DNA of 64,000 nucleotides, from contig JAISLQ010000072.1 in the NCBI GenBank assembly GCA_031290885.1, positions 1,790 to 65,789 of the forward strand, written 5' to 3'. A model generated the notes under the pieces. The model searched no databases and was not told the origin of the DNA. It saw nothing but the letters and a program-made list of their open reading frames with translations. Origin of the DNA: Acidaminococcales bacterium (GTDB lineage: Bacteria; Bacillota; Negativicutes; Acidaminococcales; JAISLQ01). Shown in pieces: positions 4,240-63,894 of the stretch (its first letter is position 1; each line of letters begins with the position of its first letter). The translations under genes and the position numbers were made by a program.

Positions 4240-5724
4240 ATGGACAAAAAAATTTTTTCCAAGGCGCGCGGCGCGCGGATGGAAAAACTGGGCGAACTGC
4301 AACGGTCTTTGCGCGCGGCGAACGTACCGGTGGTGATAACTTTTGAAGGATGGCACGGCGCCGGCAAAGGCGTCATCATCAACTCCCTGGTGCAGGCCAT
4401 GGATCCGCGCGGCTTTAAAGTTTACACAGCCTACTATCCTAACGACGAAGAACGCCGCAAACCATTTTTTTGGCAATTCTGGAAAAAACTGCCCGCCAAA
4501 GGCAGCATTTCTATTTTTGACCGTAGTTGGTACGGACAAATAGTAAATAAAGCCGTCGGCGGGGAAATCAACTCGGAAGAAACCGAACGCGCTTTCAATG
4601 ACGTCAATGCGTTTGAGCGCTTGCTGTTTGACGACAATCATGTCATCATCAAGTTTTTTGCGCATATATCCGAAAAAACGCATAAAAAGCGCATAAAGGA
4701 CAATATACAAGTTCTGGATAAAAACATGCGGACAACTACCGAAGACTGGAAAGAGATAGGCCTCTACAAGCAGCTTTTTGCGGCCTATGAGGACATGTTC
4801 AGCAAGACGGACACCGCTTACGCCCCGTGGATCGCGGTAGAGGCAGAAGATGAAAATTACGCCCAGATAAAGGTTTTGGATTATATAATAAATGTTTTGG
4901 AGAAAAAACTCGCGCAGATAGGCTTCGCCGAAGAAAACAAAGGCGAAGCGGCGGAAAAAAACGATCCGACCGCCGTTTCCCCGGCGGGTTCCGCCGGCCA
5001 GGCCTTCGTTTCATCCGTGCTTAGCAAGGTCGATTTGAGCAAAACCATGGAAAAAAACGATTACAAAGACAAATTGGAAGAATACCAGAAAGAAATCAGG
5101 CACCTGCAATACAAGCTGTTCCGGCGCGAGGTAGCGACGGTAATAGTTTTTGAAGGTTGGGACGCGGCCGGCAAAGGCGGCGTAATCAAGCGCGTTACCG
5201 CAAACATGGATCCGCGGGGCTATTATGTGACGCCGATAGCGGCGCCGGGGGCGGTTGACAATTCTTATAACTATCTTTGGCGGTTTTGGAAAGAAATGCC
5301 CGTTAAAGGCATGGTGGCCATTTTTGACCGCAGCTGGTACGGCCGCCTCATGGTTGAGCGGGTGGAGGGGTTTGCGACCGAAGGGCAATGGCGGCGCGCC
5401 TACCGCGAAATTAATGAGATGGAAGAACAATTAATTAACAGCGGCAGCATAGTGCTTAAATTCTGGTTGCAAATAGATAAAGACGAACAGCTGAAAAGGT
5501 TCGAGGAAAGGCGCGACAACCCTTTGAAAAATTGGAAAATTACCGATGAGGACTGGCGCAACCGCGAAAAATGGGATAAATATGAACCGGCGATCAACGA
5601 AATGCTTTTCCGTACGTCCACCATACATGCGCCTTGGACGATTGTCGAGGCAAACTGCAAATTTTACGGCCGGATAAAGACAATGAAAACTATTATTGAC
5701 GCAATGAATGGCCGGCTGAAGTGA
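4240..5724 (+). CDS. two-domain polyphosphate kinase 2 family protein (polyphosphate:AMP phosphotransferase-like)
   Basis: Two PPK2 repeats, each with a Walker A-like FEGW(H/D)(G/A)AGKG and an FDRSWYG motif. Confidence 0.9.
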   Translation: MDKKIFSKARGARMEKLGELQRSLRAANVPVVITFEGWHGAGKGVIINSLVQAMDPRGFKVYTAYYPNDEERRKPFFWQFWKKLPAKGSISIFDRSWYGQIVNKAVGGEINSEETERAFNDVNAFERLLFDDNHVIIKFFAHISEKTHKKRIKDNIQVLDKNMRTTTEDWKEIGLYKQLFAAYEDMFSKTDTAYAPWIAVEAEDENYAQIKVLDYIINVLEKKLAQIGFAEENKGEAAEKNDPTAVSPAGSAGQAFVSSVLSKVDLSKTMEKNDYKDKLEEYQKEIRHLQYKLFRREVATVIVFEGWDAAGKGGVIKRVTANMDPRGYYVTPIAAPGAVDNSYNYLWRFWKEMPVKGMVAIFDRSWYGRLMVERVEGFATEGQWRRAYREINEMEEQLINSGSIVLKFWLQIDKDEQLKRFEERRDNPLKNWKITDEDWRNREKWDKYEPAINEMLFRTSTIHAPWTIVEANCKFYGRIKTMKTIIDAMNGRLK

Positions 5725-5740
5725 TTTTGAGGTATGCTCT

Positions 5741-7414
5741 TTGACTTGGAACGCGCGCAAAAAAAACATCGAAATATTGGAAAAAGAAAGCGGCGCTTTT
5801 GTTTTTGCGCCGGGCGCCCGGGCCGCGTGTGCGCTTGTGTATCCCAATGCCTATAGTGTGGGCATGTCAAACTTGGGATTTCATATTATTTACCGCCAGC
5901 TCAATCAGCGCGGCGATATAGCGTGCGAGCGGTTTTTCCTGCCGGAGGGCGAAGGCGGCGCGCCGCTTTTGAGCGTAGAAACGCAAAGGGAATTGGCCGA
6001 TTTTCCGATTATCGGCGTCATGCTGTCATTTGAACTGGATTATTTTAATTTGCTGGCAATGCTTAAAGCGGGCGGCATACCGCCCGCCGCCGCCGAACGC
6101 GGCGGACAGGAGCCGCTGCTGTTTGCCGGCGGTCCTTGCGCTACTTTCAATCCCGAGCCGCTGGCGGAAGTCGTGGATGCTTTTGTCATAGGCGAAGGCG
6201 AGGAAGCGGCCGGGGCGGTTGTGGATTCCTGGCGGCAAAGCCGGGATTGGCCGGATAGGGCGGCCAGGCTGAAAGCCCTGGCGCAAATACCTGGGGTATA
6301 CGTGCCGGCCTTTTACTATCCTGCTTACGGCGAAAGCGGAAAAATCGTTTCCATGCGCCATGATCCGTCAGTTCCCGCGAAAGTCCGGCGGCAGTGGATA
6401 AAGGACATCGACCGCTACGCCGGGCATTATCAAATAATAACCCCCTTGGCGGAGTTCGCCAATATGTTTGTAATCGAGGTAGCCCGCGGCTGCGGGCGCC
6501 ACTGCCGGTTCTGCATGGCCGGATATTGTTTTCGCCGCCCGCGCAGCCGCGATCTCGAACTTATCTGGCAAGCGATAACCGAAAGGCCGCCGAGCGCCGC
6601 CAAAGTTGGACTGCTGGGCGCGGCCGTGTGCGACTATCCCTATATCAGGGAGCTGACCGGCCGGCTGGTTCAAGCTTCCATACCCTTTTCCATCGCTTCC
6701 CTGCGCGCCGACGCTTTTGACGGCGCATTGGCCAGGGCGCTGGCCGGCAGCGGCCAGAGGACTTTGACCATCGCCCCGGAGGCGGGCAGCGAAAGGCTGC
6801 GCAAAGTCATCAACAAAGGCGTAAGCGAAGACGACATACTGCGCGCCTTGTCCCTGGCGGCTGACGCGGGCATGACCGGCGGCAAGCTTTACTTTATGCT
6901 CGGGTTGCCGACCGAGACAGATCATGACGTTATAGAATTGGCAAACCTTGTTTTGAAAGCGAAAAAATATATTCCCGGCAAACTTTCTTTAAGCATCAAT
7001 TATTTTGTCCCTAAGCCTTTTACGCCTTTTCAGTGGGATGAACCGGCGCATACCGGCGCGCGCCTGAAACAGTTGCGGGAATTGTTGCAAAAGGAAAAAA
7101 ATATAGAAATAAAGGCGGAATCCCTGCGCGCCAGCATAGCGCAGCAAATTTTGTCCCGTGCCGGCCGCCGGGCGGGAGAATTTCTGCTTCATGCCACCCA
7201 AAACGGCGGGTTAAGCGAGTTTGTCCGCCGTTTTAAAAAAGAAAAACCAGAAATTTATGATCGGGCGGACTGCTTGCCATGGGATCATCTTGACATGGGT
7301 TTCAGCAAAGAATATTTGTCGGGCGAACGGGAAAAGGCCGAACGGATGGAGGACACGCCGCAGTGCTTTGCCGGTTGCGGACGCTGCGGCGTATGCGGGG
7401 GGGCAAAAGGTTGA
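5741..7414 (+). CDS. B12-binding-domain radical SAM protein (TIGR03960-like)
   Basis: CxxxCxxC radical SAM motif in VARGCGRHCRFCMAGY, N-terminal YPNAYSVGMSNLGFHIIY. Apparent TTG start. Confidence 0.85.
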   Translation: MTWNARKKNIEILEKESGAFVFAPGARAACALVYPNAYSVGMSNLGFHIIYRQLNQRGDIACERFFLPEGEGGAPLLSVETQRELADFPIIGVMLSFELDYFNLLAMLKAGGIPPAAAERGGQEPLLFAGGPCATFNPEPLAEVVDAFVIGEGEEAAGAVVDSWRQSRDWPDRAARLKALAQIPGVYVPAFYYPAYGESGKIVSMRHDPSVPAKVRRQWIKDIDRYAGHYQIITPLAEFANMFVIEVARGCGRHCRFCMAGYCFRRPRSRDLELIWQAITERPPSAAKVGLLGAAVCDYPYIRELTGRLVQASIPFSIASLRADAFDGALARALAGSGQRTLTIAPEAGSERLRKVINKGVSEDDILRALSLAADAGMTGGKLYFMLGLPTETDHDVIELANLVLKAKKYIPGKLSLSINYFVPKPFTPFQWDEPAHTGARLKQLRELLQKEKNIEIKAESLRASIAQQILSRAGRRAGEFLLHATQNGGLSEFVRRFKKEKPEIYDRADCLPWDHLDMGFSKEYLSGEREKAERMEDTPQCFAGCGRCGVCGGAKG

Positions 7415-13351: not shown

Positions 13352-15940
13352 TCAGAAGAACCATTTGAACTGCGCGGCGAAGCCCACGCCTTTGCGCTTG
13401 CCGGCGTAGCCTTCCGCTTTGAGGTTAACCAAGCTGTTCTTTCCTTTGAAGATCACCCCGATTTCCCCTATGCCGGTGCCGCCTTTCATGCCCGGCGCGT
13501 CTATCGCCATGCCGTTGCCTACGGCTTTGGCCTTGCCGTCAAATTCGTGGTCGTAGGCAAGGCCGGCGTAAAATTCTTTCTTTTCCCCTGACGCCTTGGC
13601 GTACCTTAGCCCCGCCCGCCAGCGCAGGGAGTTCACGGCGTCAAATTCCAACGGGTCGTTGCCCAGCACGGCCGTCGATTCGCTGCCGGTGCGCGTGTAG
13701 AGAATTTTGCTGTAAAGATCGAGCGAGCCGCCGCCCTTCAGTTCCTTTATCCAGCCCGCGCCGACATGCAGGCCGCAGTAGACGGATTTGGCGTCGTAGC
13801 GGGCGTTCTGGCCGGAAATTTTGAGGTCGGCGCTATTAAAGTTGGTCTTGACCTGCCCTAAGCGCAGGGAGCCTTCGGCGTAGAAGCGGCCGGAGCCGCG
13901 CTTGGCGTTTTCCCGCCGCGCCAAAAAGCCGAGGCCGCGGTAGGTGGTGTCGCCGTTGCCCCTTGCTTCGTCCGCGCCGCCGAAGTTGTTGTAGCTGTCA
14001 TAGCTGCCCCAGCCGGCTTCGAGGAAGGCGCCGTAGGTGAGGTGGGCGCCGCTCCCGGTTTCTTTGGCAAAAGACAGCCCGGCGACCAGGGAGGGGCCCT
14101 TGACGTCGACGTGGGAGCCGGTGTCGTGGCGCACGTCGCTGTAGCTTAAGGCGGCGAAGACGGCCGGGCCTTTTTCCGCCCAGGCCCTGGCGGCGGCTTC
14201 CCGGAAGCCTTCGCCGGCGAGCAGGTCCGCGCCTTGGTTGAGGAAGGCGGGGCCGGCCAGCCAACCTTCGGAGACGGCCTTGGCCTTCGGGTTGGCGCGG
14301 GCGGAGGCAACCTCGGCGACCAGCTCGTTGGAGCTTCTTTTCTTGACGTTAAAGTCGTACAGGACAAAGATGCCCTGGCTGCCGTCCATGGGCACGCCGC
14401 CATCGTATTGGCCAGCGTCCGAGAAGGTGGACGCTGCTTTAATCAGGCCTACCTCGTCGCCGACGTTTAGCTTGCCGCTGCCGGTGATTTCGATGCCCGG
14501 AAGGACCACGGCAGCGCCAAAGTCCACGGTGTTGGCTTCAAGGGCGAAGGCGTCGCCGCGGATGACTTTGAATTCATAGGTGTCGAAGCGTTCAACGGTG
14601 GCGAAAGCGCCATCTTGGTCAAGGCTGTAAAGGCGCAGGGCATTGCCAGTGCCGCCGGAGCTTTCGTAGCCGCGCAAGGAGCCTCCCCCAAAAGCAATGG
14701 CGCCGGCCAAGGTAACGGTATTGTTGTTGGCTGTGCCGCTTCTTACGTAGCCGCCAGCGATATCTCCCCCCACCGAGCCGCCGTCGATCAGTACTTCGTT
14801 GTTGGAAGCTTCACCACTGCTGCCAACATAGCCGCCGTAGACGTTGCCGACAATCTCCGAGTTTTTAATGGTTACTTTGTTGCCGGTAACGGTGCCGTTA
14901 TAGCCAATCCAGCTGCCGTAGACAATAGAGGCAACGCGGCCGCCGATTATCACTACGCGGTGGTCGGTGGCGGTGCCGCTCATATCAATTTCTCCGCCCG
15001 CAACCCGGCTGCCAATCGCGACATTCTCAAGATAGATATCCGGCCGGCGGTCGTCGCCACCGCCGACAGTTGTTCCCGCGTAGGCATAGTTAGCGTAGAC
15101 ATCGCCGTCGGTAGAAATGCTGCCGCCGCCTTTGTTGACAATGCTGATGCGGTTGCCTTGGGATGTGCCGCTGGTGCTTCTAAACCAGCCGCCGACGACA
15201 GTGCCGGCAAAGGTGAGGTGGCCGGCGCCGGTATTGACGATCGCAACCGCGTTGCCGGAGCCGACGACGCTGGCGCCGACGTCGCCCGAGGCAAGTATCA
15301 TGGCGCCGCCGGCGACGTTGCCGCCGATGGTATAGTCGGCGCCATCGTCAAGGGCGATATTGACGACGTTTCCATTGACAGTTCCGCCGCTCTCGGAGAC
15401 CGCGCCGCCGAAGATGCCTATCTTTTCGCCATCGTCGCCGCCGGGCGTCTCGTATGTTACGATGCCTGAAATGTTTCCGCCCCGGTAGTTTACGGTGTTG
15501 CCTTCGGCGATGCCGTGCTGGACGAAGCCGCCGATGATGCCGCCTGTGCCGTCGCCGCTTATGTAGTTGACTTCGTTGCCGCGGACGGCGTTGGAAAGGA
15601 CATCAGACGTGATACCGCCGAAGACGAAGTGCGGCGCCAAAGCCGTATTGCTGCCGAAGTCGATAGTCAGCCGGTTGCCGTCAGATGCGCCCGATGGGTT
15701 CCAAATGCCTTGGCTGCCGATGGGGAAGGCGCCGTCGGGGTGGGGGTAGTTGCTGTACGTTGTGTAAAACCATTCGCTGCCGGTTACAGGCGCCAGATCA
15801 ATGTAACCGGGCCCGGATGAGGCGCCGTCATAGGTGTAATCCGCCGCCCGCGCCGGCGGCACGCCGAGGAAGAGGGACGCTATTCCCGCCCCCAGCGCGA
15901 GGGTTTTCATTTTACGCGGCATTTTGCCAAGTTTTCTCAT
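13352..15940 (-). CDS. autotransporter (type Va) outer membrane protein with glycine-rich beta-helical passenger
   Basis: Signal peptide MRKLGKMPRKMKTLALGAGIASLFLGVPPARA. Long passenger of G-N-x-V / GG repeats. C-terminal beta-barrel of alternating residues ending in the OMP signature ...FAAQFKWFF. AGGGAGG RBS upstream. Confidence 0.9.
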   Translation of the reverse strand: MRKLGKMPRKMKTLALGAGIASLFLGVPPARAADYTYDGASSGPGYIDLAPVTGSEWFYTTYSNYPHPDGAFPIGSQGIWNPSGASDGNRLTIDFGSNTALAPHFVFGGITSDVLSNAVRGNEVNYISGDGTGGIIGGFVQHGIAEGNTVNYRGGNISGIVTYETPGGDDGEKIGIFGGAVSESGGTVNGNVVNIALDDGADYTIGGNVAGGAMILASGDVGASVVGSGNAVAIVNTGAGHLTFAGTVVGGWFRSTSGTSQGNRISIVNKGGGSISTDGDVYANYAYAGTTVGGGDDRRPDIYLENVAIGSRVAGGEIDMSGTATDHRVVIIGGRVASIVYGSWIGYNGTVTGNKVTIKNSEIVGNVYGGYVGSSGEASNNEVLIDGGSVGGDIAGGYVRSGTANNNTVTLAGAIAFGGGSLRGYESSGGTGNALRLYSLDQDGAFATVERFDTYEFKVIRGDAFALEANTVDFGAAVVLPGIEITGSGKLNVGDEVGLIKAASTFSDAGQYDGGVPMDGSQGIFVLYDFNVKKRSSNELVAEVASARANPKAKAVSEGWLAGPAFLNQGADLLAGEGFREAAARAWAEKGPAVFAALSYSDVRHDTGSHVDVKGPSLVAGLSFAKETGSGAHLTYGAFLEAGWGSYDSYNNFGGADEARGNGDTTYRGLGFLARRENAKRGSGRFYAEGSLRLGQVKTNFNSADLKISGQNARYDAKSVYCGLHVGAGWIKELKGGGSLDLYSKILYTRTGSESTAVLGNDPLEFDAVNSLRWRAGLRYAKASGEKKEFYAGLAYDHEFDGKAKAVGNGMAIDAPGMKGGTGIGEIGVIFKGKNSLVNLKAEGYAGKRKGVGFAAQFKWFF

Positions 15941-16025
15941 GTGATGAGTCCTCCCTTTGTTTTGCGTTTTTTGCTGTATATTTTGCTATTGTTATGGATG
16001 CGGGGAGGAGGGCCGTTCCGGCCAA

Positions 16026-16206
16026 GGTAACGGAATTGGGTAAAGTGTTACCTGCATTGGGAGCGAAATTTGGCCTGCAAAGCCGCTTGACCATTGTGGG
16101 CAGCAATGCCCGCCCGCCCCGAGGCAAAATTAAAAATGCCGGAAACCCGGCATTTGACGCGAAAACAAAAAAACGGCAGGTAACACTTCACCCAATTCTG
16201 TTACCC
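16026..16206. repeat. IR-flanked cassette 1: 29/30-bp inverted sites A (16026-16054) and B (16177-16206) around a 122-bp core
   Basis: The reverse complement of A, caggtaacactttacccaattccgttacc, matches B, caggtaacacttcacccaattctgttacc, at 27/29 positions. Each site is bounded by GGTAAC...GTTACC. Confidence 0.85.
16126..16153 (-). terminator. orientation-dependent intrinsic terminator inside cassette 1
   Basis: The minus strand reads ATGCCGG-GTTT-CCGGCAT followed by TTTTAATTTT. On the plus strand the same hairpin is followed by TTGACGCG, which has no U-tract. Confidence 0.55.
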
Positions 16207-16266
16207 ACACGGCTCATCGCCGGCCAAACCCTTTGCGGATATGGCCAAATCGGCGATAAATCCAGC

Positions 16267-16449
16267 GGGTAACACAATTGTAGAAAATGTTACCTGACGT
16301 ACGCTCGCAAGCCGCCTGTAAAGCTGTCCGGCTTCTTTCAAGGGGAAAGGGGCCCCGCGCAAACAAGCAAAATAAAAATACTGTAACGCCCGTATTTGCT
16401 GGCGAAAGGAAAAGACAGCAGGTAACATTTTCTACAATTTTGTTACCTG
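16267..16449. repeat. IR-flanked cassette 2: 30/31-bp inverted sites C (16267-16296) and D (16419-16449) around a 122-bp core
   Basis: The reverse complement of C, caggtaacattttctacaattgtgttaccc, matches D, caggtaacattttctacaattttgttacct, at 28/30 positions. The core is a diverged copy of the cassette 1 core (shared gcctg[c/t]aaagc, caaaat[t]aaaaat, atttg). Confidence 0.85.
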
Positions 16450-16516
16450 CTGCCGCCCGCCGGCCGTTTTCGTTTTGCCGTTTTACATTCACTCTATTAT
16501 CAGCGGCATTTTCACC

Positions 16517-16545
16517 ATAATACATACAAATTACGCCGTTGTCAA
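16517..16545 (-). promoter_or_regulatory. sigma-A/sigma-70 type promoter facing the autotransporter gene
   Basis: The minus strand reads TTGACA (16545-16540), a 17-nt spacer, then TATTAT (16522-16517). Confidence 0.5.
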
Positions 16546-16921: not shown

Positions 16922-18583
16922 TTGTCCGACAACGGAAAACTTCAGATAATTCCCTTGGGCGGCTTGGGGGAAATTGGGAAGAACATGACGGTAATAAGAT
17001 TCCAGGACAATATTCTTATTATCGACGCCGGCTTGATGTTCCCGGAAGACGATATGCTCGGCGTGGATCTGGTCATTCCCGATTTGACTTACATTTTTGA
17101 AAACAGCGATAAAATCAAAGCCGTTGTCCTCACTCACGGCCATGAGGACCATATCGGGGCTTTGCCTTATTTGCTCAAAAAGATTGACGTGCCGGTGTAC
17201 GGAACGCCCCTTACGCTCGGCATATTGGAGGGCAGGCTGAAAGAAAACGGTGTTTCTTCTTCCAAATTGAAGACTATCGAGGCTGGGCACAAATTGCGAT
17301 TGGGCTGCTTTAATCTTGAGTTTTTGCGGGTCAATCACAGCATCGCCGATTCCGTGGCGGTCGCCGTCCACACGCCGGCCGGCGTCATTGTCCATACCGG
17401 CGACTTTAAGATCGACCAGACGCCGGTGGACGGGCAGATAACCGATTTTACCAGGTTCGCGGAATTAGGCGACAAGGGCGTCCTAGTAATGATGTCCGAC
17501 AGCACGAACGCCGAGAGGCCGGGCTATACGCAAAGCGAGAAGACCGTCGGCGTAAAGTTTGACGAAGTTTTCCGTACCGTGCAAAGCAGGATAATCATCG
17601 CTACCTTTTCTTCCAATGTGCATCGCATACAGCAGGCGGTCGACAGCGCCGCCAGATACAAGCGCAAAGTCGCGGTAATCGGGCGCAGCATGGTGAATGT
17701 CGTCAGCATAGCGATGGAACTTGGGTATCTGAAAATGCCTGAGGGCACTTTAATCGATATAGAGGATATCAATAAATATCCCGCTTCCCAGCTTGTCATA
17801 ATAACCACCGGCAGCCAGGGCGAGCCGATGTCCGCCCTTACCAGGATGGCGATGGCCGATCATAAGAAGATAAGCATATTGCCAAGCGACACGGTCATAA
17901 TTTCCGCGACCCCCATCCCCGGCAACGAAAAGCTTGTGTCAAGGACGGTCGATTTGCTTTTCCGGCTGGGCGCGGACGTGATTTACGACCGCTCGTCCGG
18001 CATACATGTTTCCGGGCACGCCAGCCAGGAAGAATTGAAGCTGATGCACAATCTTATAAAACCGCAATTTTTCATTCCCGTTCACGGCGAGTACCGGCAT
18101 CTTATCCAGCACAAAAAAATCGCCATGGAACTTGGCATGCCCAAAGAAAATATTTTCGTGGCGGAAAACGGCTCGATAATCGAAATAAATAAAAACAAGG
18201 GCGCCATTACGGGCAAGGTTACGGCCGGCAAAGTTTTGGTGGACGGGCTTGGCGTAGGGGACGTCGGCAATATCGTGCTGCGCGACCGCCGGCAGCTGTC
18301 ACAGGACGGTATATTGATTGTCGTGGTTACCATCGACAAACAGGATTGGATCGTGGTAGCGGGGCCGGACATTGTTTCGCGCGGCTTTGTTTATATCCGC
18401 GAGGCGGAAGAGCTGATGGACGAGGCGAAAGATAGGGTCCAGGTGGCGCTTGACCGTTGCAAGGAAAATTGCGTTTCCGAGTGGTCGGCGATAAAGTCGG
18501 CGGTGCGCGATGCGCTGGGACGGTTTTTGTATGAGAAAACGCGCCGTCGGCCGATGATTTTGCCGATTATCATGGAAATTTGA
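16922..18583 (+). CDS. rnj: ribonuclease J
   Basis: 553 aa. Metallo-beta-lactamase motif THGHEDHIG, beta-CASP region, and conserved HVSGHASQEEL. GGAGGTG RBS, apparent TTG start. Confidence 0.95.
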   Translation: MSDNGKLQIIPLGGLGEIGKNMTVIRFQDNILIIDAGLMFPEDDMLGVDLVIPDLTYIFENSDKIKAVVLTHGHEDHIGALPYLLKKIDVPVYGTPLTLGILEGRLKENGVSSSKLKTIEAGHKLRLGCFNLEFLRVNHSIADSVAVAVHTPAGVIVHTGDFKIDQTPVDGQITDFTRFAELGDKGVLVMMSDSTNAERPGYTQSEKTVGVKFDEVFRTVQSRIIIATFSSNVHRIQQAVDSAARYKRKVAVIGRSMVNVVSIAMELGYLKMPEGTLIDIEDINKYPASQLVIITTGSQGEPMSALTRMAMADHKKISILPSDTVIISATPIPGNEKLVSRTVDLLFRLGADVIYDRSSGIHVSGHASQEELKLMHNLIKPQFFIPVHGEYRHLIQHKKIAMELGMPKENIFVAENGSIIEINKNKGAITGKVTAGKVLVDGLGVGDVGNIVLRDRRQLSQDGILIVVVTIDKQDWIVVAGPDIVSRGFVYIREAEELMDEAKDRVQVALDRCKENCVSEWSAIKSAVRDALGRFLYEKTRRRPMILPIIMEI

Positions 18584-55681: not shown

Positions 55682-57253
55682 ATGGCTGACAATCGAAAAG
55701 AAGCAGAACGCACGGAACTTCACCGTGTCATATGGAGCATAGCCAACGACCTGCGCGGTTCTGTGGATGGGTGGGATTTTAAGCAATACGTCCTCGGCAT
55801 ATTGTTCTACCGATATATCTCGGAGAATTTGTCGGGGTACATCAATGCGGGGGAGCGCGAAGCGGGCAACCCCTCTTTTGAGTATGCCAAGCTGTCCGAT
55901 GGCGATGCCGAATCAGCCCGTGAGGATTTAGTCGCCACGAAAGGTTTCTTTATCCTGCCGTCTGAACTGTTTGAAAACCTGCGGGCAAAGGCGGCAAACG
56001 ACCCCGACCTCAATGTAACGCTCGAAAACATCTTCAAGCATATAGAAGCATCGGCACAGGGAACGCCGAGTGAAGCAAACTTCAAAGGCTTGTTTGATGA
56101 CATCGATGTTAACAGCAATAAACTCGGTGGCTCGGTCGCCAAACGAAACGAGCAAATCGTCAAACTATTGAATGGCATCGGTGAAATGAAGCTTGGCGAT
56201 TACAAAGAGAACACAATCGACCTTTTCGGCGACGCTTACGAGTACCTTATGGGCATGTACGCAAGCAATGCGGGCAAAAGCGGCGGCGAATATTACACGC
56301 CGCAAGAAGTTTCCGAACTGCTCACCCTCCTGACGATAGTTGGCAAAACCGTTGTGAACAAAGTATATGACCCGGCTTGCGGTTCGGGCTCGCTGCTCTT
56401 GAAATTTGCCAAAATACTCGGCAAAGATAACGTCCGCAACGGCTTTTTCGGGCAGGAAATCAATCTGACGACTTACAATCTCTGTCGTATCAATATGTTC
56501 CTGCATGACATAGACTATGACAAATTCGATATAGCGCACGGCGACACAATGCTTGAACCGCAGCATTGGGATGACGAGCCGTTTGAGGCTATCGTATCGA
56601 ATCCGCCGTACTCCCACACTTGGGCGGGCGACGGCAATCCGTTACTTATCAACGACCCGCGTTTTTCCCCTGCCGGAGTGCTTGCGCCCAAGAGCAAAGA
56701 GGACTTCGCGTTTATAATGCACGGGCTTTCGTGGCTTGCGACGAATGGCACGGCGGCGTATGTCGTGTTTCCCGGCATACTCTATCGCGGCGGCGCGGAA
56801 CAGAAAATCCGCAAATACCTCATAGACAACAACTTCGTGGACTGCGTGATTCAACTGCCGGACAACCTCTTTTTTGGCACGAGCATAGCGACGTGCATAA
56901 TGGTACTCCGAAAAGCGAAATCCGATAACTCGACCCTGTTCATTGACGCGAGCCGCGAGTTCGTAAAGGTAACGAACAGCAACAAACTGGCCGCTGACAA
57001 CATTGATAAAATCGTCGCGGCATACACGACACGCGGGAGTATGGACTACTTTACCCGCCTTGTTCCGAATGGTGAAATTGCAGAGCAGAGTTATAACCTT
57101 TCCGTATCGACTTACGTCACGCAAGAGGATAAGCGCGAGATTATCGACATAACCGAGTTGAACGCCGAAATTGAGCGTATAGTCGCCCGCGAAGACGTTC
57201 TGCGCCGTGAAATTGCTGCAATTGTCGCGGATATTGAGGGAGGCGCAAGATAA
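55682..57253 (+). CDS. hsdM: type I restriction-modification system methyltransferase subunit HsdM
   Basis: AdoMet motif DPACGSGSLL, catalytic NPPY (VSNPPYS), and an HsdM N-terminal domain. Confidence 0.93.
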   Translation: MADNRKEAERTELHRVIWSIANDLRGSVDGWDFKQYVLGILFYRYISENLSGYINAGEREAGNPSFEYAKLSDGDAESAREDLVATKGFFILPSELFENLRAKAANDPDLNVTLENIFKHIEASAQGTPSEANFKGLFDDIDVNSNKLGGSVAKRNEQIVKLLNGIGEMKLGDYKENTIDLFGDAYEYLMGMYASNAGKSGGEYYTPQEVSELLTLLTIVGKTVVNKVYDPACGSGSLLLKFAKILGKDNVRNGFFGQEINLTTYNLCRINMFLHDIDYDKFDIAHGDTMLEPQHWDDEPFEAIVSNPPYSHTWAGDGNPLLINDPRFSPAGVLAPKSKEDFAFIMHGLSWLATNGTAAYVVFPGILYRGGAEQKIRKYLIDNNFVDCVIQLPDNLFFGTSIATCIMVLRKAKSDNSTLFIDASREFVKVTNSNKLAADNIDKIVAAYTTRGSMDYFTRLVPNGEIAEQSYNLSVSTYVTQEDKREIIDITELNAEIERIVAREDVLRREIAAIVADIEGGAR

Positions 57254-58350
57254 TGGAAAACAGCTTGACGCTCTATGCGCCTTTTGTAAAAGAAATAAAA
57301 GACCTTATCTATCGCCGCCAGTATGAGGCGATGAATAAGGTCAACGCCGAACTCATACAGCTTTACTGGGAAATCGGCGAGGAAATTTACGCCCAACAGC
57401 AGGAAAAGGGTTGGGGGAAGTCTGTCGTTGAGGTTTTGTCGAAAGAACTTCAAAAAGAATTTCCGGGAGTGTCGGGATTTTCGGCGCGTAATCTCTGGCG
57501 TATGCGTAATTTCTATGTCGAATACGCGCAAACCGAAAAGCTGCCACCATTGGTTGCAGAAATTCAAAAGCCAATTCTGCCACCGTTGGTGGCAGAAATA
57601 AGCTGGTCGAAAAACTGCGCAATTATGGAAAAATGCAAAGACCATAGTGAGCGCGAGTTTTATATCAAAATGACGCGGCGTTACGGTTGGATAAAGGACG
57701 TGCTGATAAACAATATCGAGAACAAGGCGTTTGAGCGGTATCTCGCCAATCAAACGAACTTTGACGAAACCGTACCCGAAAAGTACAGGCTTCAAGCGAA
57801 ACTCGCCGTCAAGGACGATTACAACTTCGACTTCATTGAGATGGGTATCGAACACAGCGAGGCGGAGGTAGAAGCGGGGATTGTCAACAACATTCGGGCG
57901 TTCCTTGCCGAAATGGGCGGCGACTTTGCCTTTATTGGCAACCAATACCGCATTGACGTGGACGACGACGATTACTATATAGACCTGCTCCTGTTCCACA
58001 GGCGGCTGCGCTCTCTTATTGCGATTGAACTCAAAATCGGCGAGTTTATCCCCGAATGCGTCGGGAAAAATGCAGTGCTTGATGAACTCGTTAAACTGCC
58101 TGACGAGAACCCGTCTATCGGGATTATCATCTGCAAGAGCAAGAAACGGACGCGGGTGGAGTATACGCTGAAAACCGCCAACAAACCAATCGGCGTGGCG
58201 ACGTACTCATTCACCGACAGCTTGCCGGAGGATTTGCGAAACCTGTTGCCCTCTCCGGACGAGATAGCGAGCATTGTCGCAGAGTTTGACAATGCGACAA
58301 ACGAACTCACGGAGAACGCAGGGGGTAAAGAAAATGGCGAGATTAGCTGA
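57253..58350 (+). CDS. YhcG-like PDDEXK nuclease domain protein (DUF1016) embedded in the type I R-M operon
   Basis: N-terminal DUF1016 helices (LIQLYWEIGEEI...GFSARNLWRMRNFY). C-terminal nuclease core (DLLLFHRRLRSLIAIELKIGEF...PSIGIIICK...NKPIGVATY). Its start overlaps the hsdM stop (TAATG). Confidence 0.85.
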   Translation: MENSLTLYAPFVKEIKDLIYRRQYEAMNKVNAELIQLYWEIGEEIYAQQQEKGWGKSVVEVLSKELQKEFPGVSGFSARNLWRMRNFYVEYAQTEKLPPLVAEIQKPILPPLVAEISWSKNCAIMEKCKDHSEREFYIKMTRRYGWIKDVLINNIENKAFERYLANQTNFDETVPEKYRLQAKLAVKDDYNFDFIEMGIEHSEAEVEAGIVNNIRAFLAEMGGDFAFIGNQYRIDVDDDDYYIDLLLFHRRLRSLIAIELKIGEFIPECVGKNAVLDELVKLPDENPSIGIIICKSKKRTRVEYTLKTANKPIGVATYSFTDSLPEDLRNLLPSPDEIASIVAEFDNATNELTENAGGKENGEIS

Positions 58351-58659
58351 TATTCTTTCAAAGCCATCATCTGCGGAATTCGTTCAGATAGACGGCTTTA
58401 TAAAGTTGACGCCGAGTGCCATATAATACCCCGTCAATTTTCCGACGATGGTTATAGGTTGTTCAGCGAGTTAAGCGAAATTGTACACGGCGATTATGAT
58501 GAAGATGTGGCGATTCAGAAATTCGAGCCGTTGCATACGTTGGTAGTCGGTATACTTGAAAACATAAAAGCTGACGATAAGCTAAATAAAGCCATCGGCA
58601 TATTGGGTTGGAACACCCAAAACGGAGGAACAGTCCAATGTCTAAACTCGACGCGCTGA
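58334..58659 (+). pseudogene. possible frameshifted small ORF between yhcG-like gene and hsdS
   Basis: ATG 58334 gives MARLADILSKPSSAEFVQIDGFIKLTPSAI*. A second frame continues AECHIIPRQFSDDGYRLFSELSEIVHGDYDEDVAIQKFEPLH...AIGILGWN. No family was recognised. Confidence 0.25.
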
Positions 58660-59864
58660 TCAAAGAACATTGCCCGAACGGGGTAAAGTATGCTACGCTT
58701 GGTGAAATCGGCACTATAACCAGAGGAAGCGGGCTATCCAAGAGTGATTTCACTAAATCTGGGATACCATGTATTCATTACGGGCAGATTTACACCTATT
58801 ATGGTACTTTTGCAACTGCTACCAAGTCTTTCGTTTCGCCCGAACTGGCGGCGCGGTTGAAGACGGTCGGCAAGGGCGATATTATCATTGCTGTTACGAG
58901 CGAGAATATTGAAGATGTTTGCAAATGCGTAGTGTGGCTTGGTGACACGGATATTGTTACGGGCGGTCATACTGCCATCTTCAAACACAGTCAAAACCCG
59001 AAGTACGTTGCCTACTGGTTTCAAACCAAGGCGTTTTTTGAGCAGAAACGCAAAATCGCCCACGGCACAAAGGTGATTGAGGTTACGCCCAAGCATCTTG
59101 AGGGGATAAAAATCCCCCTCCCGCCGCTGCCCGTGCAGCGTAAAATTGTCGAGGTGCTCGACAATTTTACGGAGCTTGCAGCGGAGCTTGCAGCGGAGCT
59201 TGCAGCAAGAAAAAAACAATATGAATATTATCGAAATTACCTCTTGACATTCAACCCCGACGCGAACACAATCTTAACAAACAAACAACGGGCAAAGTGG
59301 GTAACGCTTGGAGAGATAGGACGGGTAGCGATGTGCAAACGGATAATGAAAGCTGAAACGTCATCCAATGGCGATGTGCCATTTTATAAAATCGGGACTT
59401 TTGGGAAAACGCCGGACGCGTATATATCTACCGAAACCTACGAGCGTTACAAGCGCGACTACTCGTACCCAAAGAAGGGCGATGTATTGATTTCAGCAGC
59501 AGGGACAATTGGCAGAGCGGTTATTTTTGACGGCGAGCCGGCCTACTATCAGGATTCAAACATCGTGTGGCTTGAACATGACGAAAGCAAAGTCCTGAAC
59601 AAGTATCTGTATTACTGCTATCAGCTTGCGCCGTGGCACGTTTCAACAGGCGGGACGATTGCGCGTCTATATAACGACAACATTACAAAGGCGAGTATCC
59701 CCGTGCCGCCGCTTGACGAGCAGGAGCGCATAGTCGCAATCCTTGACCGCTTTGACGCCCTTGCAAACGACATCGCCACAGGGCTTCCCGCCGAAATCGC
59801 GGCGCGCAAGCGGCAGTACGAATATTACCGCGACAAACTATTGGCCTTTAAGGAGTGCGCTTGA
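58638..59864 (+). CDS. hsdS: type I restriction-modification system specificity subunit HsdS
   Basis: Two target-recognition domains separated and followed by conserved helices (ELAARKKQYEYYRNYLL and EIAARKRQYEYYRDKLL). ATG 58638 follows GGAGGA. Confidence 0.9.
   Translation: MSKLDALIKEHCPNGVKYATLGEIGTITRGSGLSKSDFTKSGIPCIHYGQIYTYYGTFATATKSFVSPELAARLKTVGKGDIIIAVTSENIEDVCKCVVWLGDTDIVTGGHTAIFKHSQNPKYVAYWFQTKAFFEQKRKIAHGTKVIEVTPKHLEGIKIPLPPLPVQRKIVEVLDNFTELAAELAAELAARKKQYEYYRNYLLTFNPDANTILTNKQRAKWVTLGEIGRVAMCKRIMKAETSSNGDVPFYKIGTFGKTPDAYISTETYERYKRDYSYPKKGDVLISAAGTIGRAVIFDGEPAYYQDSNIVWLEHDESKVLNKYLYYCYQLAPWHVSTGGTIARLYNDNITKASIPVPPLDEQERIVAILDRFDALANDIATGLPAEIAARKRQYEYYRDKLLAFKECA
59172..59207 (+). 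repeat. 3 x 12-bp tandem repeat (GAGCTTGCAGCG) in the central conserved region of hsdS
   Basis: gagcttgcagcg gagcttgcagcg gagcttgcagca encodes (ELAA)x3 at the central coiled-coil spacer. Confidence 0.9.
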
Positions 59865-62800
59865 TGAGCCAAGTGAACATCGTCGCCGAAACGCCGCTTG
59901 AAACCGTCGTGGCGGAGTACGCCCCCGTTGGCAGCCGCTCGGACGCTTACCAGTCCGAGGCGGCGCTTGAGGCGGAATTTATCCGCCTGCTGGCCGCGCA
60001 GGGTTATGAGCATGTGAACATCGCGAGCGAAGCGGCGTTAATCGAAAACCTGCGCCGCCAGCTTGAGCGGCTTAACAATATGGCCTTTGCCGATGCGGAA
60101 TGGCAAAGGTTCTTTTCCTCGTGCGTCGCCAACGCCAACGAGGGCATTGTTGATAAAACGCGCCGCATTCAGGACGATTATGTGCAAATTTTGCGCCGCG
60201 ACGACGGCACGACGAAAAACGTCTATCTGCTCGACAAGAAACACATTCACAACAACCGTCTGCAAGCGATCAACCAATACGAAACCGGGGACGGGACGTA
60301 TAAGAACCGCTATGACGTTACTATTCTCGTCAACGGTATGCCGCTCGTACATATCGAGCTTAAGCGGCGCGGCGTGGCAATCCGCGAAGCGTTCAACCAA
60401 ATAAGCCGCTATCAGCGCGACAGCTTTTGGGCGGGGTCGGGTCTGTTCGAGTACGTGCAGATTTTCGTTATATCGAACGGCACGCACACGAAATATTACA
60501 GCAACACCACCCGCGAACTTTCCGTCAAAGAAGCGGCCGGCGTCCGCAAAACCAGGAAAACGTCCAACAGCTTCGAGTTTACGTCCTTTTGGGCGGACGC
60601 GAGCAACAAGGTCATCGCCGACCTCGTTGACTTCACAAAGACGTTTTTCGCCAAGCACACGATTTTGAATATCCTCACGCGCTATTGCGTGTTTACAAGC
60701 GAGGAACTGCTGCTCGTTATGCGCCCGTACCAAATTGCGGCGACGGAGCGGATTTTGAACCGTATTGAGATAGCGAACAACTATAAAAAATACGGTTCGG
60801 TTGACGGCGGCGGCTACATTTGGCACACTACGGGGAGCGGCAAGACGCTCACCAGCTTTAAGGCCGCGCAGCTTGCCGCAAGGCTTGACTATATCGATAA
60901 AGTGATATTTGTCGTTGACCGCAAAGACCTTGACTATCAGACAATGAAAGAATACGACCGCTTCCAGAAAGGCGCGGCGAACGGCAACAGTTCCACGCGG
61001 GTCCTGGCCCGTCAATTGGAGGACAGGGACGAAAAGGGCAACCCGCATATTTACAGCCTTATCGTCACGACGATTCAGAAGCTCGGCGTGTTTATCTCCA
61101 AAAACAAGGCGCACGACATTTTCAAAAAGCGCGTCGCGCTTATTTTCGACGAATGCCATCGCTCACAGTTCGGCGATATGCACACGGCAATAACCAAGAC
61201 GTTCAAAAATTACCATATATTCGGCTTTACGGGTACGCCGATTTTCGCCGCCAACTCGTCAAGCGGCGGCAATCCGCTTTTGAAAACGACGGCGCAGGCG
61301 TTTGGCGACAAGCTCCACAGCTATACGATAGTGGACGCGATCAACGATGGCAACGTCCTGCCGTTCAGGATTGATTTCATTAACACCGTCAGGGAAAAGG
61401 ACGGCGTAGCGGACAAGAAAATCAGCGCGATTGACGCGGAACGCGCCTTGCTCGACCCGCACCGCATATCGCTTGTGACGGATTATATCCTTGCCCATTT
61501 CGACCAAAAGACGAAACGGAGCGAGCATTACACGGTCAAGGGCAAACGCCTTGCCGGATTTAACTCCATATTCGCCGTGTCGGGCATACCTGCGGCGAAG
61601 CTGTACTATGAGGAGTTCAAGAACCGCAGCCACGGTTTGAAAGCGGCAACCATATTCAGCTACGCCGCCAATGAGGAGGACGCCGACGAGGAATTTGACA
61701 ACGACAGGCTTGACAAAAACAGCCGCGATTTCCTTGAAGCGGCCATCGCGGACTATAACGCGATGTTCGCCACCAACTTCGATACCTCTGCGGATAAATT
61801 TCAGAATTATTACAAAGACCTTTCGCAGAGGGTAAAAGATCGCGAAGTTGATTTGCTTGTCGTGGTCAATATGTTCCTCACGGGCTTTGACGCTACGACG
61901 CTTAACACGCTGTGGGTTGACAAAAATTTGCGTCAGCACGGCTTGCTCCAAGCGTTCAGCCGCACCAACCGCATACTGAACAGCGTCAAGACTTTCGGCA
62001 ACATCGTGTGCTTTCGCGACTTGAAACAAGCGACCGATGATGCGATTGCGCTCTTCGGCAACCGCGAGGCGGGCGGCATTGTGGTGATCCGCACGTTCCG
62101 CGAGTATATGGAAGGCTACGAAAAAGGCGGCGAGCACAAGCCGGGATATATTGAGCTTATCAAAACGCTTGCAACCGATTTCCCGCTCGACCGGCCGATT
62201 GTCGGGGAGGAAAACCAAAAGGAGTTTATCAAGCTGTTCGGCGCGATACTTAGGCTCAGGAACGTGCTTGCGGCGTTTGACGAGTTCGAGGGCAACGAAA
62301 GAATCGCCGAACGGGATTATCAGGACTATCAAGGCGTGTACCTTGACCTGAAGGACAAGTTCCGTCCCGAAGGCGGCGAGCGCGAGGAAATAAACGACGA
62401 CATTGAGTTTGAACTTGAACTTATCCGGCAAATCGAGGTCAATATCGACTATATCCTTATCCTTGTAGCCAAGTACAAGGACAGCAACTGCAAGGACAAG
62501 AGCATACTTGACAGCATTTATGCAGCTGTGCGTTCAAGCGTCCGTCTCCGCAGCAAGAAAGAACTGATTGAAGAGTTCATAAGCCGGGTAAACGTCCAGA
62601 CAGAGGTCGAGGACGACTGGCAGAAATTCGTCCGGGAAGAAGCCGAAAAGGACTTGCGAAGCCTTATCGCCGAGGAGAATCTCAAAGACGGCGAGACAAG
62701 AAAGTTCATGGAAAACGCCTTCCGCGACGGCGCGGTTAAAACGACCGGAACGGACGTCGATAAAATTTTGCCGCCGGCGTCGCGCTTCGGAGGGGGCAAC

Positions 62801-62872
62801 AGGCAGGAGAAGAAACAAGGCGTTGTCGCCAAGCTCTTGAAATTCTTTGAGAAATATTTCGGGGCAGTCTGA
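59864..62872 (+). CDS. hsdR: type I restriction endonuclease subunit HsdR
   Basis: N-terminal nuclease domain (DVTILVNGMPLVHIELKRRG). SF2 helicase motifs (TTGSGKT, DECHRSQ, GFTGTP, FSRTNR). The ATG overlaps the hsdS stop (TGATG). Confidence 0.93.
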   Translation: MSQVNIVAETPLETVVAEYAPVGSRSDAYQSEAALEAEFIRLLAAQGYEHVNIASEAALIENLRRQLERLNNMAFADAEWQRFFSSCVANANEGIVDKTRRIQDDYVQILRRDDGTTKNVYLLDKKHIHNNRLQAINQYETGDGTYKNRYDVTILVNGMPLVHIELKRRGVAIREAFNQISRYQRDSFWAGSGLFEYVQIFVISNGTHTKYYSNTTRELSVKEAAGVRKTRKTSNSFEFTSFWADASNKVIADLVDFTKTFFAKHTILNILTRYCVFTSEELLLVMRPYQIAATERILNRIEIANNYKKYGSVDGGGYIWHTTGSGKTLTSFKAAQLAARLDYIDKVIFVVDRKDLDYQTMKEYDRFQKGAANGNSSTRVLARQLEDRDEKGNPHIYSLIVTTIQKLGVFISKNKAHDIFKKRVALIFDECHRSQFGDMHTAITKTFKNYHIFGFTGTPIFAANSSSGGNPLLKTTAQAFGDKLHSYTIVDAINDGNVLPFRIDFINTVREKDGVADKKISAIDAERALLDPHRISLVTDYILAHFDQKTKRSEHYTVKGKRLAGFNSIFAVSGIPAAKLYYEEFKNRSHGLKAATIFSYAANEEDADEEFDNDRLDKNSRDFLEAAIADYNAMFATNFDTSADKFQNYYKDLSQRVKDREVDLLVVVNMFLTGFDATTLNTLWVDKNLRQHGLLQAFSRTNRILNSVKTFGNIVCFRDLKQATDDAIALFGNREAGGIVVIRTFREYMEGYEKGGEHKPGYIELIKTLATDFPLDRPIVGEENQKEFIKLFGAILRLRNVLAAFDEFEGNERIAERDYQDYQGVYLDLKDKFRPEGGEREEINDDIEFELELIRQIEVNIDYILILVAKYKDSNCKDKSILDSIYAAVRSSVRLRSKKELIEEFISRVNVQTEVEDDWQKFVREEAEKDLRSLIAEENLKDGETRKFMENAFRDGAVKTTGTDVDKILPPASRFGGGNRQEKKQGVVAKLLKFFEKYFGAV

Positions 62873-63120
62873 TTATTGTTCGGCCTTACGAGCTTTGCTT
62901 TGACGGGTTGCGGAAACAATCCGTTGCTGCGGCTGGAACTCACGGGTGCGCAAAACGCATCGATGACGGCGGCATTTCCTTGATGGCTTTATGAAGTTAC
63001 TCGAGCAAATTGAACCACAAGCAGTAATCGCGCACGGCGCGACGAACGATTGGATGCTTCCGCCACTATTCGCCATAGACGCAAATATGGTCCGCTTTGA
63101 AAGATATTTCTAAAACTCGC

Positions 63121-63894
63121 TGCGCTGCGCCGTATGCGGGACAAATACTTTTCGGGGCCAAATGCGGTTTTATTGTCGTGGTCGGAAAGATATTTGTACT
63201 TCGCGTGCTTCGTTATATCGTATTTGCTCTATAAAAACGAACGCACACCGCACAAGGATAGAATACACTTGCCCCCATCCATGACCGCTATTTCGTCCTG
63301 TGACATGAGTTCTTTTCCCAACTTTTGATAATTAAGGCCGTAGGATTGCGATTGTCCTTGGTTTTCGGAAGTATTAAAAGCGTCGATTGTTCCTTTGCCT
63401 AAAAGCTCCGAGATTTCCTTTAGAGTGCCTTTCTCTTTTCCGCCTAAAAACAAGGTTGTATGGCAATTTCCGATTATGGTATCCGCGTGGTCTTTATAAA
63501 TTGCCCGCAACTGGCTCCGTGCCTGTACTATCAAAGCGGCTGATATTTCCCTGCTGCGGAGTACGGAAATTAAATGCTGCATATCGGGAATTTTTATGTT
63601 TGCAAATTCATCAAGCAAGCAGCGAACATGAACAGGAAAACGCCCGCCGTATTCATCATCTGCCTTTGTACAAAGCGTGTTCATCATCTGCATAATTACC
63701 ATTGACGATAGAAAATCAAAAGTGCTGTCGGTGTCGCTTGTGATAACAAAAAAAGCGGCCTTGCGGTCGCCAAGCGTATCAAGCTCTAATTCGTCGTATA
63801 CCATGAGGTCGCGGAGTTCCTTTATATCGAAAGGCGAAAGTCGCGCCCCGCATAAAATTAGTATGCTTTTTGCCGTTTTTCCCGAAACAAAATG
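63121..63894 (-). pseudogene. VirD4/TraG-type type IV coupling protein, N-terminally truncated and interrupted by an in-frame TAG
   Basis: The minus strand reads GKTAKSILILCGARLSPFDIKELRDLMVYDELELDTLGDRKAAFFVI...VHVRCLLDEFANI...CILSLCGVRSFL, then TAG at 63229-63231, then SKYDITKHAKYKYLSD. Only the C-terminal third of a Firmicutes T4CP is present. A stop lies at 63895-63897 upstream. Confidence 0.8.

Follow-up and report, generated by a model that had tools for sequence, protein, structure and literature searches.

Tandem cassettes that probably act as invertible-terminator switches in the leader of an autotransporter-like gene of an Acidaminococcales bacterium

Phase switches that work by flipping a terminator, as opposed to a promoter, have to our knowledge been detailed essentially only for the cwpV gene of Clostridioides difficile. 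Here we analyse a 64-kb stretch of DNA from an Acidaminococcales bacterium (assembly GCA_031290885.1, contig JAISLQ010000072.1, positions 1,790 to 65,789; the whole stretch is termed "the window"), in which the long leader of a gene for an autotransporter-like outer-membrane protein probably contains, judging from sequence, two tandem DNA-inversion switches, that is, 122-bp cassettes bounded by inverted 31-bp recombinase core sites. These cassettes most likely act as flip switches that turn the surface-protein gene on and off. The comparisons reported below support a cwpV-like invertible-terminator phase switch, which here would be self-contained, tandem and heterospecific.

The cwpV switch (Cdi1/RecV) shares with the window locus a promoter that stands outside and upstream of a short inverted-repeat segment in the leader of a surface-protein gene (PMC2784873). 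Also common to both are an intrinsic terminator in one orientation only (predicted for the window) and a tyrosine recombinase encoded elsewhere (as we infer for the window) (PMC2784873). The cwpV segment is a single copy of 195 bp between 21-bp imperfect repeats, whereas the sites described here are 31 bp long, internally palindromic and placed around cores of 121–122 bp (PMC2784873). Unlike in cwpV, the core contains the whole of the predicted terminator hairpin together with its U tract, the leader has a tandem of two cassettes that differ in spacer, and the unit is repeated before several autotransporter paralogs in a diderm Negativicute. The flgB switch of C. difficile (Cdi4) likewise has an invertible segment (154 bp) in a long 5′ untranslated region downstream of its promoter and likewise acts after transcription initiation, but it depends on Rho-mediated rather than intrinsic termination, and its repeat is non-palindromic and of different sequence (PMC5386303; PMC7446863). 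The cwpV and flgB repeats have no shared consensus, and both the cwpV repeat and the RecV-dependent flgB repeat, AAGTT(A/G)CTAT(A/T)TTACAAAAAA, are unlike the form of the window sites, CAGGTAACA-N13-TGTTACCTG (PMC5386303). On present evidence, the window switch would be an analogue, and not a homologue, of the RecV-dependent switches.

In Escherichia coli fim, FimB and FimE are likewise small (~200 amino acids, aa) tyrosine enzymes that flip a short regulatory segment of a surface structure, and the candidate recombinase family described below, also catalytic-domain-only and of the same size, matches the FimE-type model over nearly its full length. The fimS segment differs in holding its promoter inside, in its length of 314 bp, in its 9-bp inverted repeats and in its adjacent recombinase genes. 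Against the NCBIfam models PRK09871 and PRK09870 the candidate family scores 48.6 and 36.4 bits, far below the respective cutoffs of 222 and 221, and its proteins are therefore not FimB/FimE members. With the Mpi-type master invertases of Bacteroides fragilis the window system would share the principle of one unlinked recombinase serving several dispersed switches with a common site consensus ahead of surface-structure genes (PMC5386303); Mpi, however, is a serine recombinase with another site consensus, and its switches carry promoters, not terminators. Invertons are frequent in Negativicutes-like genomes (PMC11892184), and in the literature searched no description of invertible terminators in Negativicutes was found and the phrase "invertible terminator" had no match.

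The locus comprises the following features, listed by position in the window.

13352–15940, minus strand: gene for an autotransporter-like outer-membrane protein of 862 aa, proposed as controlled by the cassettes
15941–16023, minus strand: fixed distal leader, with ribosome-binding site GGGAGG at 15955–15950
16024–16054: site A, on the 3′ side of cassette 1, paired in inverted orientation with B; gene strand CAGGTAACA-CTTTACCCAATTC-CGTTACCTT
16055–16176, minus strand: core 1, candidate invertible segment of 122 bp
16124–16155, minus strand: predicted intrinsic terminator in core 1, with a 9-bp stem AAAUGCCGG / CCGGCAUUU and loop GUUU, then UUAAUUUU
16177–16207: site B, on the 5′ side of cassette 1; gene strand TGGGTAACA-GAATTGGGTGAAG-TGTTACCTG
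16208–16265, minus strand: inter-cassette spacer, in which a promoter-like site was looked for and none detected
16266–16296: site C, on the 3′ side of cassette 2, paired in inverted orientation with D; gene strand CAGGTAACA-TTTTCTACAATTG-TGTTACCCG
16297–16418, minus strand: core 2, candidate invertible segment of 122 bp, which aligns with the other cores
16419–16449: site D, the promoter-side (5′) site of cassette 2; gene strand CAGGTAACA-AAATTGTAGAAAA-TGTTACCTG
16517–16545, minus strand: sigma-70-type promoter TTGACA-17-TATTAT (11 of 12 matches), upstream of and outside both cassettes
16922–18583: divergent RNase J gene; the leader interval lies between it and the autotransporter-like gene

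The motif GGTAAC-N15-GTTACC occurs four times in the window (16026–16052, 16179–16205, 16268–16294 and 16421–16447), compared to a mean of 0.02 in shuffled sequences, none of 100 of which reached four. The corresponding 31-bp sites form two inverted pairs, A/B (16026–16055 and 16176–16205; 30 nt, 93% complementary) and C/D (16263–16296 and 16419–16452; 34 nt, 94% complementary), and each 31-mer folds into a stem of 9 bp capped by a 13-nt loop (z = -4.3 and -2.7). This architecture of a 9-bp arm, a 13-bp asymmetric spacer and a second 9-bp arm (spacers of 12–14 nt when all sites are considered) is like that of a recombinase core site. As direct tandem copies, the two modules have diverged (71% identity over 79 nt, 242-bp period); their cores, when 31-nt sites are assumed, each measure 122 bp, and the cassettes lie 84 and 326 nt upstream of the ATG, in non-coding DNA between the promoter and the start codon. 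The promoter-like site itself (16545–16517) lies 67 nt upstream of site D; the leader is ~576 nt long. An earlier note on this DNA had listed a near-consensus minus-strand promoter, two tandem modules of ~241 bp, the inverted site pairs A/B and C/D, pseudo-palindromic 30-mers, cores of exactly 122 bp and, in the gene-proximal core, a hairpin trailed by a T run only when read along the gene strand; all of these were recovered, at or within 1–3 nt of where the note had placed them.

That hairpin, AAATGCCGG-GTTT-CCGGCATTT followed by TTAATTTT at 16155–16124, is present on the gene strand only and has a folding energy of -12.8 kcal/mol (22 nt). Core 2 has a hairpin at the homologous position (AAATACGGGCGTTACAGTATTT, 16397–16376) that is weak (-2.5 kcal/mol), with the T tract kept on the gene strand. 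When either window core was reverse-complemented in silico, its terminator was lost, and neither flip brought a promoter onto the gene strand. A predicted terminator on one strand only was found in core 1 and in six further cassettes. The sequenced state would accordingly count as OFF, with a strong stop in cassette 1 and a weak one in cassette 2. A promoter inside the cores was considered as well and rejected, the plus strand of both cores being without a promoter-like site; a perfect -10-like TATAAT in some 3′ site spacers of contigs L001 and L003 was treated as incidental, as it has no acceptable -35 and is missing from the window sites.

To place these cassettes among relatives, we turn to the gene that they precede. 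The 862-aa product is identical to P0001, a protein named as from "MAG: Acidaminococcales bacterium" (MAG, metagenome-assembled genome), and has no Pfam match (E ≤ 0.001) and no NCBIfam match (E ≤ 1) of its own. We call it an autotransporter because of its signal peptide, its glycine-rich repeats, its C-terminal ...KWFF and its homologs that bear PF03797, the autotransporter beta-domain; with such clear autotransporter-like features and no family match itself, it would represent a divergent beta-domain clade. Exact-protein look-ups (autotransporter, RNase J, P0001) gave no second assembly of the window locus, and a query with the first 155 aa of the autotransporter matched no protein. A 50%-identical homolog, P0002, sits on the metagenome contig L001. 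A genome scan with the pattern GGYAACRNAATTNNNNNAANTGTTACCT, covering one genome per GTDB species, matched a single genome, the MAG Acidaminococcales Iy174_bin70, on three contigs (L002–L004); its PFOR is 94% identical in amino acids to that of the window, and it is therefore a congener. A metagenome scan with the specific site pattern gave no matches.

Window and contigs L001–L004 together hold ten cassettes, every core of which is 121–122 bp long and in all of which, upon alignment, a terminator hairpin or its degenerate remnant keeps a constant offset from one core end. Nine of the ten stand within a larger unit composed of a promoter, the cassette, a conserved distal leader, a ribosome-binding site and the sequence MR(K/R)L.K.P.KMKT..., with which the downstream autotransporter paralogs start; a promoter of the form TTGACAgcgccgcc...TATATTAT, similar to that of the window, precedes the cassettes in L001, L002 and L003. 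Counted among the nine is a remnant in L003 (3139–3316), a complete promoter-cassette-leader unit with a strong sense terminator and no gene downstream. The tenth cassette lies at the very start of contig L004 (3–187), upstream of a LysR-family regulator gene. Tandem pairs on one leader are seen in the window, L002 and L003, and L001 shows the edge of an upstream cassette. Distributed in this way, the cassettes fit a regulatory module that was duplicated along with its gene, and not a dispersed repeat.

Several smaller observations were made on these contigs. Contigs end at or near cassettes in several cases (the start of L001, the end of L003, the start of L004). A GC-rich repeat (…ggattgccgcg…cggctcgcg…) is common to L002 (2600–3000) and L001 (4400–4560), where it lies between cassettes or paralogs. 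The constancy of core length in all ten Acidaminococcales cassettes, despite ~30–40% divergence, hints at a geometric constraint such as looping or phasing.

Evidence for inversion comes from core orientations. Relative to the promoter and gene, the terminator end of the core is in sense in six cassettes (win_m1 and win_m2 of the window, L001_g1, L002_a, L003_r and L003_up) and in antisense in four (L001_g2, L002_b, L003_dn and L004); the terminator scan accepted a hairpin in five of the sense cassettes and two of the antisense ones, and the orientation of the degenerate L003_up, L001_g2 and L004 was assigned by core alignment. In the clearest case, the leaders of L001 and L003 are collinear at 78% identity on either side of the core, on one side over the upstream site and the promoter and on the other between the 3′ site and the ATG, whereas the 121-bp core between these flanks is 52% identical in forward alignment and 71% identical as its reverse complement. 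On the single contig L001, one paralog is predicted to be OFF and the next ON, and within a single leader of L002 cassette a is predicted to be OFF and cassette b ON. The contig names of L002 and L003 (k119_...) imply a k-mer of ~119 nt, far longer than the 31-bp repeats, and reads should therefore span each orientation. Comparable in-silico reasoning brought the flagellar switch of C. difficile to light, where strains became identical again once the segment was reverse-complemented (PMC5386303). We conclude from these alignments that the cassette family occurs in both orientations between homologous flanks and, by extension, that the window cassettes themselves would invert. The earlier note's proposal of a cwpV-like invertible terminator thus gains support from the six sense and four antisense cassettes and from the reversed core between the collinear flanks of L001 and L003.

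Spacer sequences co-vary between partner sites. Partner spacers differ at a mean of 1.1 positions compared to 3.1 for non-partners (0 of 20,000 permutations); between the spacers of C and D, for instance, a single one of the 13 positions differs. Where several spacer bases have changed together, both partners show the change (GGGTG/GGGTA in win_m1; CATTATGGAAAG in both L003_up sites). The spacers of the two window cassettes are GAATTGGGTrAAG and mAATTGTAGAAAA, that of site B being heterospecific to the cassette 2 spacer, and wherever cassettes stand in tandem on one leader (window, L002, L003) their spacers differ. Identical tandem spacers would permit deletion between sites in direct orientation, and the difference is therefore read as selection for orthogonality, by which heterospecific spacers would let each cassette act on its own. 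TGTTTCC, an inner arm in degenerate form, is found at the non-terminator core end in both the ON cassette L001_g2 and the OFF cassette L002_a; it travels with the core and therefore fits strand exchange within the site. Heterospecific lox and FRT variants have the same arms and different spacers and recombine only with an identical-spacer partner. Those variants are engineered, whereas the pattern found here is natural and read from the DNA letters only, so that the likeness is one of analogy.

No recombinase was found among the forty open reading frames of the window scanned with Pfam, and in an hmmsearch of its six-frame translation the small tyrosine recombinase family introduced here reached a best E of 0.64; together with tblastn, these searches bear out the earlier note's remark that the window has no recombinase gene. 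As the window encodes none, the enzyme for its cassettes would have to be unlinked, as RecV is for cwpV (PMC2784873). Candidates emerged from a second metagenome scan with the looser pattern CAGGTAACA-N12-14-TGTTACCTG. The matches listed were mostly unrelated palindromic hairpins, and among them at least five unrelated loci have a gene for a 190–199-aa PF00589 tyrosine recombinase next to such sites or enclosed by them. In L010/L074, L076, L033 and L039 the PF00589 gene is flanked or immediately preceded by arms identical to CAGGTAACA...TGTTACCTG; in L064 such arms are found at the distal site, with TGTAACA...TGTTACA at the proximal site. The inverted sites on either side of the recombinase gene are 726 bp apart in L010/L074, where the gene adjoins a flagellin gene, and 748 bp apart in L076. 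In L033, L039 and L064, a two-site cassette ends ~30 nt ahead of the start codon of the recombinase gene. The full catalytic set (R, K, HxxR, H and Y) is intact in the candidate recombinases.

The association was also approached in reverse, from four family members picked by protein similarity alone (P0150, P0191, P0183 and P0207). Each of them has a proximal site, (C)ATGTAACA-N12-TGTTACATGGGC, 28–34 nt before the ATG, and in three of them the scan found an inverted partner with matching spacer 138–144 bp further upstream; for P0150 (L132/L133) the outer arm of the partner is degenerate and was identified by eye only. Over the seven loci among L033, L039, L064 and L132–L138, the scanned inverted partner lies 138–144 bp upstream in six. 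The cores of two similarity-picked members carry a terminator, one per orientation. This arrangement suggests that the recombinase flips its own leader. The family is large (at least 7,958 of 8,000 scored candidates at E ≤ 1e-10) and reaches no NCBIfam cutoff, the XerA, XerD, XerC and FimE-type "tyrosine-type DNA invertase" models being matched far below threshold. From the shared site type, the window cassettes are probably served by an unlinked small tyrosine invertase of this kind.

Two observations on individual family loci may be added. The element at L010 7039–7795, in which a 192-aa tyrosine recombinase gene stands between the flagellin gene (4310–6427, minus strand) and a UvrA-like gene, is also present in L074, with its edge in L073; it looks like a self-encoded inverton, and its orientation is the same in all three assemblies. 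Many family members lie on contigs of 1–2 kb, as would fit assembly breaks at invertible DNA.

Taken together, these data are consistent with the following mechanism. The fixed upstream promoter would transcribe through both cassettes, each of which, in the sequenced orientation, is predicted to give a hairpin and U tract on the mRNA (strong in cassette 1, weak in cassette 2), so that most transcripts would stop before the gene (the OFF state). A tyrosine recombinase encoded elsewhere, likely a member of the ~190-aa, catalytic-domain-only family that adjoins the same kind of site in other bacteria, would exchange strands within the spacers of a site pair and flip the cassette. Once flipped, the hairpin would have no U tract behind it and transcription would be expected to read through (the ON state). 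Different spacers would allow each site to recombine only with its own partner, and deletions or larger inversions between cassettes would be avoided. For full expression, cassette 1 would have to be turned round, perhaps together with cassette 2. More tentatively, and with somewhat less than even confidence, we propose that the leader is a two-bit switch of orthogonal invertible terminators in series, run in trans by a member of the ~190-aa family whose members typically carry their own ~143-bp cassette, the window cassettes being "orphan" targets copied before each paralog.

Three other explanations were weighed against inversion. The cassettes might be copies of a non-autonomous mobile element with terminal inverted repeats, akin to miniature inverted-repeat transposable elements (MITEs) or repetitive extragenic palindromes (REPs), that landed in the leader, their orientations reflecting independent insertions. 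The element is indeed short (~184 bp), with terminal inverted repeats and several copies per genome; one copy adjoins the unrelated LysR gene of L004, and that at L003 3139–3316 is without a downstream gene. The copies are few, however, being confined in the congeneric MAG to three contigs and found nowhere else in the 64-kb window, and nine of ten are embedded in the homologous promoter-cassette-leader unit of autotransporter paralogs or their remnant, which argues that the unit was duplicated with the gene. Furthermore, no target-site duplications were seen, L001 and L003 have opposite core orientations at the same position between the same flanks, core length is fixed at 121–122 bp despite ~30–40% sequence divergence, and the same site type adjoins recombinase genes. 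The earlier note had named such a dispersed repeat as what would speak against its proposal; the four window sites are all in the leader and the genome scan matched one MAG, on three contigs, and we regard an origin by insertion as highly improbable. We hold it equally far-fetched that the leader acts at the RNA level only, as an attenuator or riboregulator whose terminators are conditional instead of flipped, with the 31-mers as hairpins bound by proteins or the long inverted repeats paired into RNase III substrates. Such an element would be in keeping with the 9-bp stem-loop of each site (z = -4.3 and -2.7), the U-rich run after the 5′ site, the capacity of partner sites to pair as a 30-bp RNA duplex and the length of the leader (~576 nt). 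Yet no Rfam family matched at gathering thresholds (0 matches over the whole 64-kb window), and the 90-nt segments fold no more stably than shuffles (z = -0.3 to -1.0). Reversal of the core would moreover be intolerable for an RNA element, and four of the ten cassettes are reversed with sites and core length conserved; the same sites also occur upstream of or around recombinase genes, including the pair 726 bp apart that encloses a whole gene.

The remaining explanation takes the cassettes for evolutionary fossils, in which rare, old RecA-dependent flips left sites that are now operator-like or functionless, the window locus being permanently OFF or leaky. Orientation differences seen only between paralogs or species, never within one population, and the degenerate state of some hairpins would fit this, but a 31-bp repeat is a poor RecA substrate. 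Partner spacers also remain near identical while cassettes diverge, with multi-base changes mirrored, which argues for ongoing exchange or selection for identity, and both the layout (9-bp arm, 12–13-nt spacer, 9-bp arm) and the arm sequence match sites tied to tyrosine recombinases at nine independent loci; a fossil state is thus considered unlikely. The reading of the cassettes as recombinase-driven switches has several observations of its own to contend with. Its spacers of 12–14 nt are longer and more variable than the classical 6–8 bp of tyrosine recombinases. The weak hairpin of cassette 2 (-2.5 kcal/mol), along with degenerate hairpins in three other cassettes, indicates that some cassettes may be decaying or acting differently. 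By tblastn, no family member was found in the window or in L001–L004, nor was one found from Acidaminococcales, the best 120 profile-search matches all being closer Clostridia-type sequences. Measured between the starts of their two sites, both window cassettes span 153 bp versus 138–144 bp for the recombinase-linked ones. Finally, the orientation differences come from paralogs and a different species (PFOR at 94% aa identity), and the duplicate assemblies of recombinase-linked loci (L132/133, L134/135, L136/137 and L010/L074/L073) have the same orientation each time.

Should the inversion reading be true, it would extend the terminator-flipping mechanism to diderm Firmicutes (Negativicutes) and to autotransporters, and in a compact form, with the whole terminator inside a fixed 121–122-bp cassette and with incompatible spacers in tandem acting as a built-in logic gate. 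It would also tie a site consensus, (C/G)(A/G)GTAACA-N12-13-TGTTAC(C/A), to an abundant and unstudied family of small tyrosine recombinases; this link from site to recombinase may be the most valuable by-product, as a route to predicting invertons from single assemblies. Metagenome assemblies report one orientation of a switch only and may break at switches, and inference of surface-protein expression in uncultured gut bacteria should consider switch state. Such cassettes could be attractive as synthetic recombinase logic parts. If the two-bit proposal holds, a master invertase would generate combinatorial surface variation in a termite-gut-type Negativicute, and the enzyme could invert its own leader through a ~143-bp cassette placed some 30 nt ahead of its start codon.

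A few minor observations concern site-like sequences and the remainder of the window. Inside the autotransporter coding sequence, ~130–160 nt past the ATG (15780–15810), lies a perfect palindrome, CCGGTTACA-N13-TGTAACCGG, with the same 9+13+9 geometry as the leader sites but with GGTTACA arms in place of GGTAACA; neither the L001 nor the L002 paralogs conserve this palindrome, which may be chance or a pseudo-site. The difference between the cassette lengths of 153 and 138–144 bp, ~10 bp, amounts to about one helical turn. Paired GGTAAC/GTTACC-type sites ~150 bp apart in L013 and L109 were set aside as unrelated, motif-rich arrays without recombinase or terminator context, as was a pair of this type and distance in L059. 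Dense short GGTAAC/GTTACC-type palindromes (e.g. ggtaacggtaacacc) in L013 (2900–3400) and L109 (100–420) seemingly belong to another repeat family that shares the hexamer. Elsewhere in the window, a type I restriction-modification locus comprises hsdM (55682–57253), a YhcG/DUF1016 nuclease gene (57253–58350), hsdS (58608–59864) and hsdR (59855–62872), and is followed by a TraG/TraD coupling-protein fragment (63229–63804, minus strand), which suggests a mobile-element border near the window end (55682–63804).

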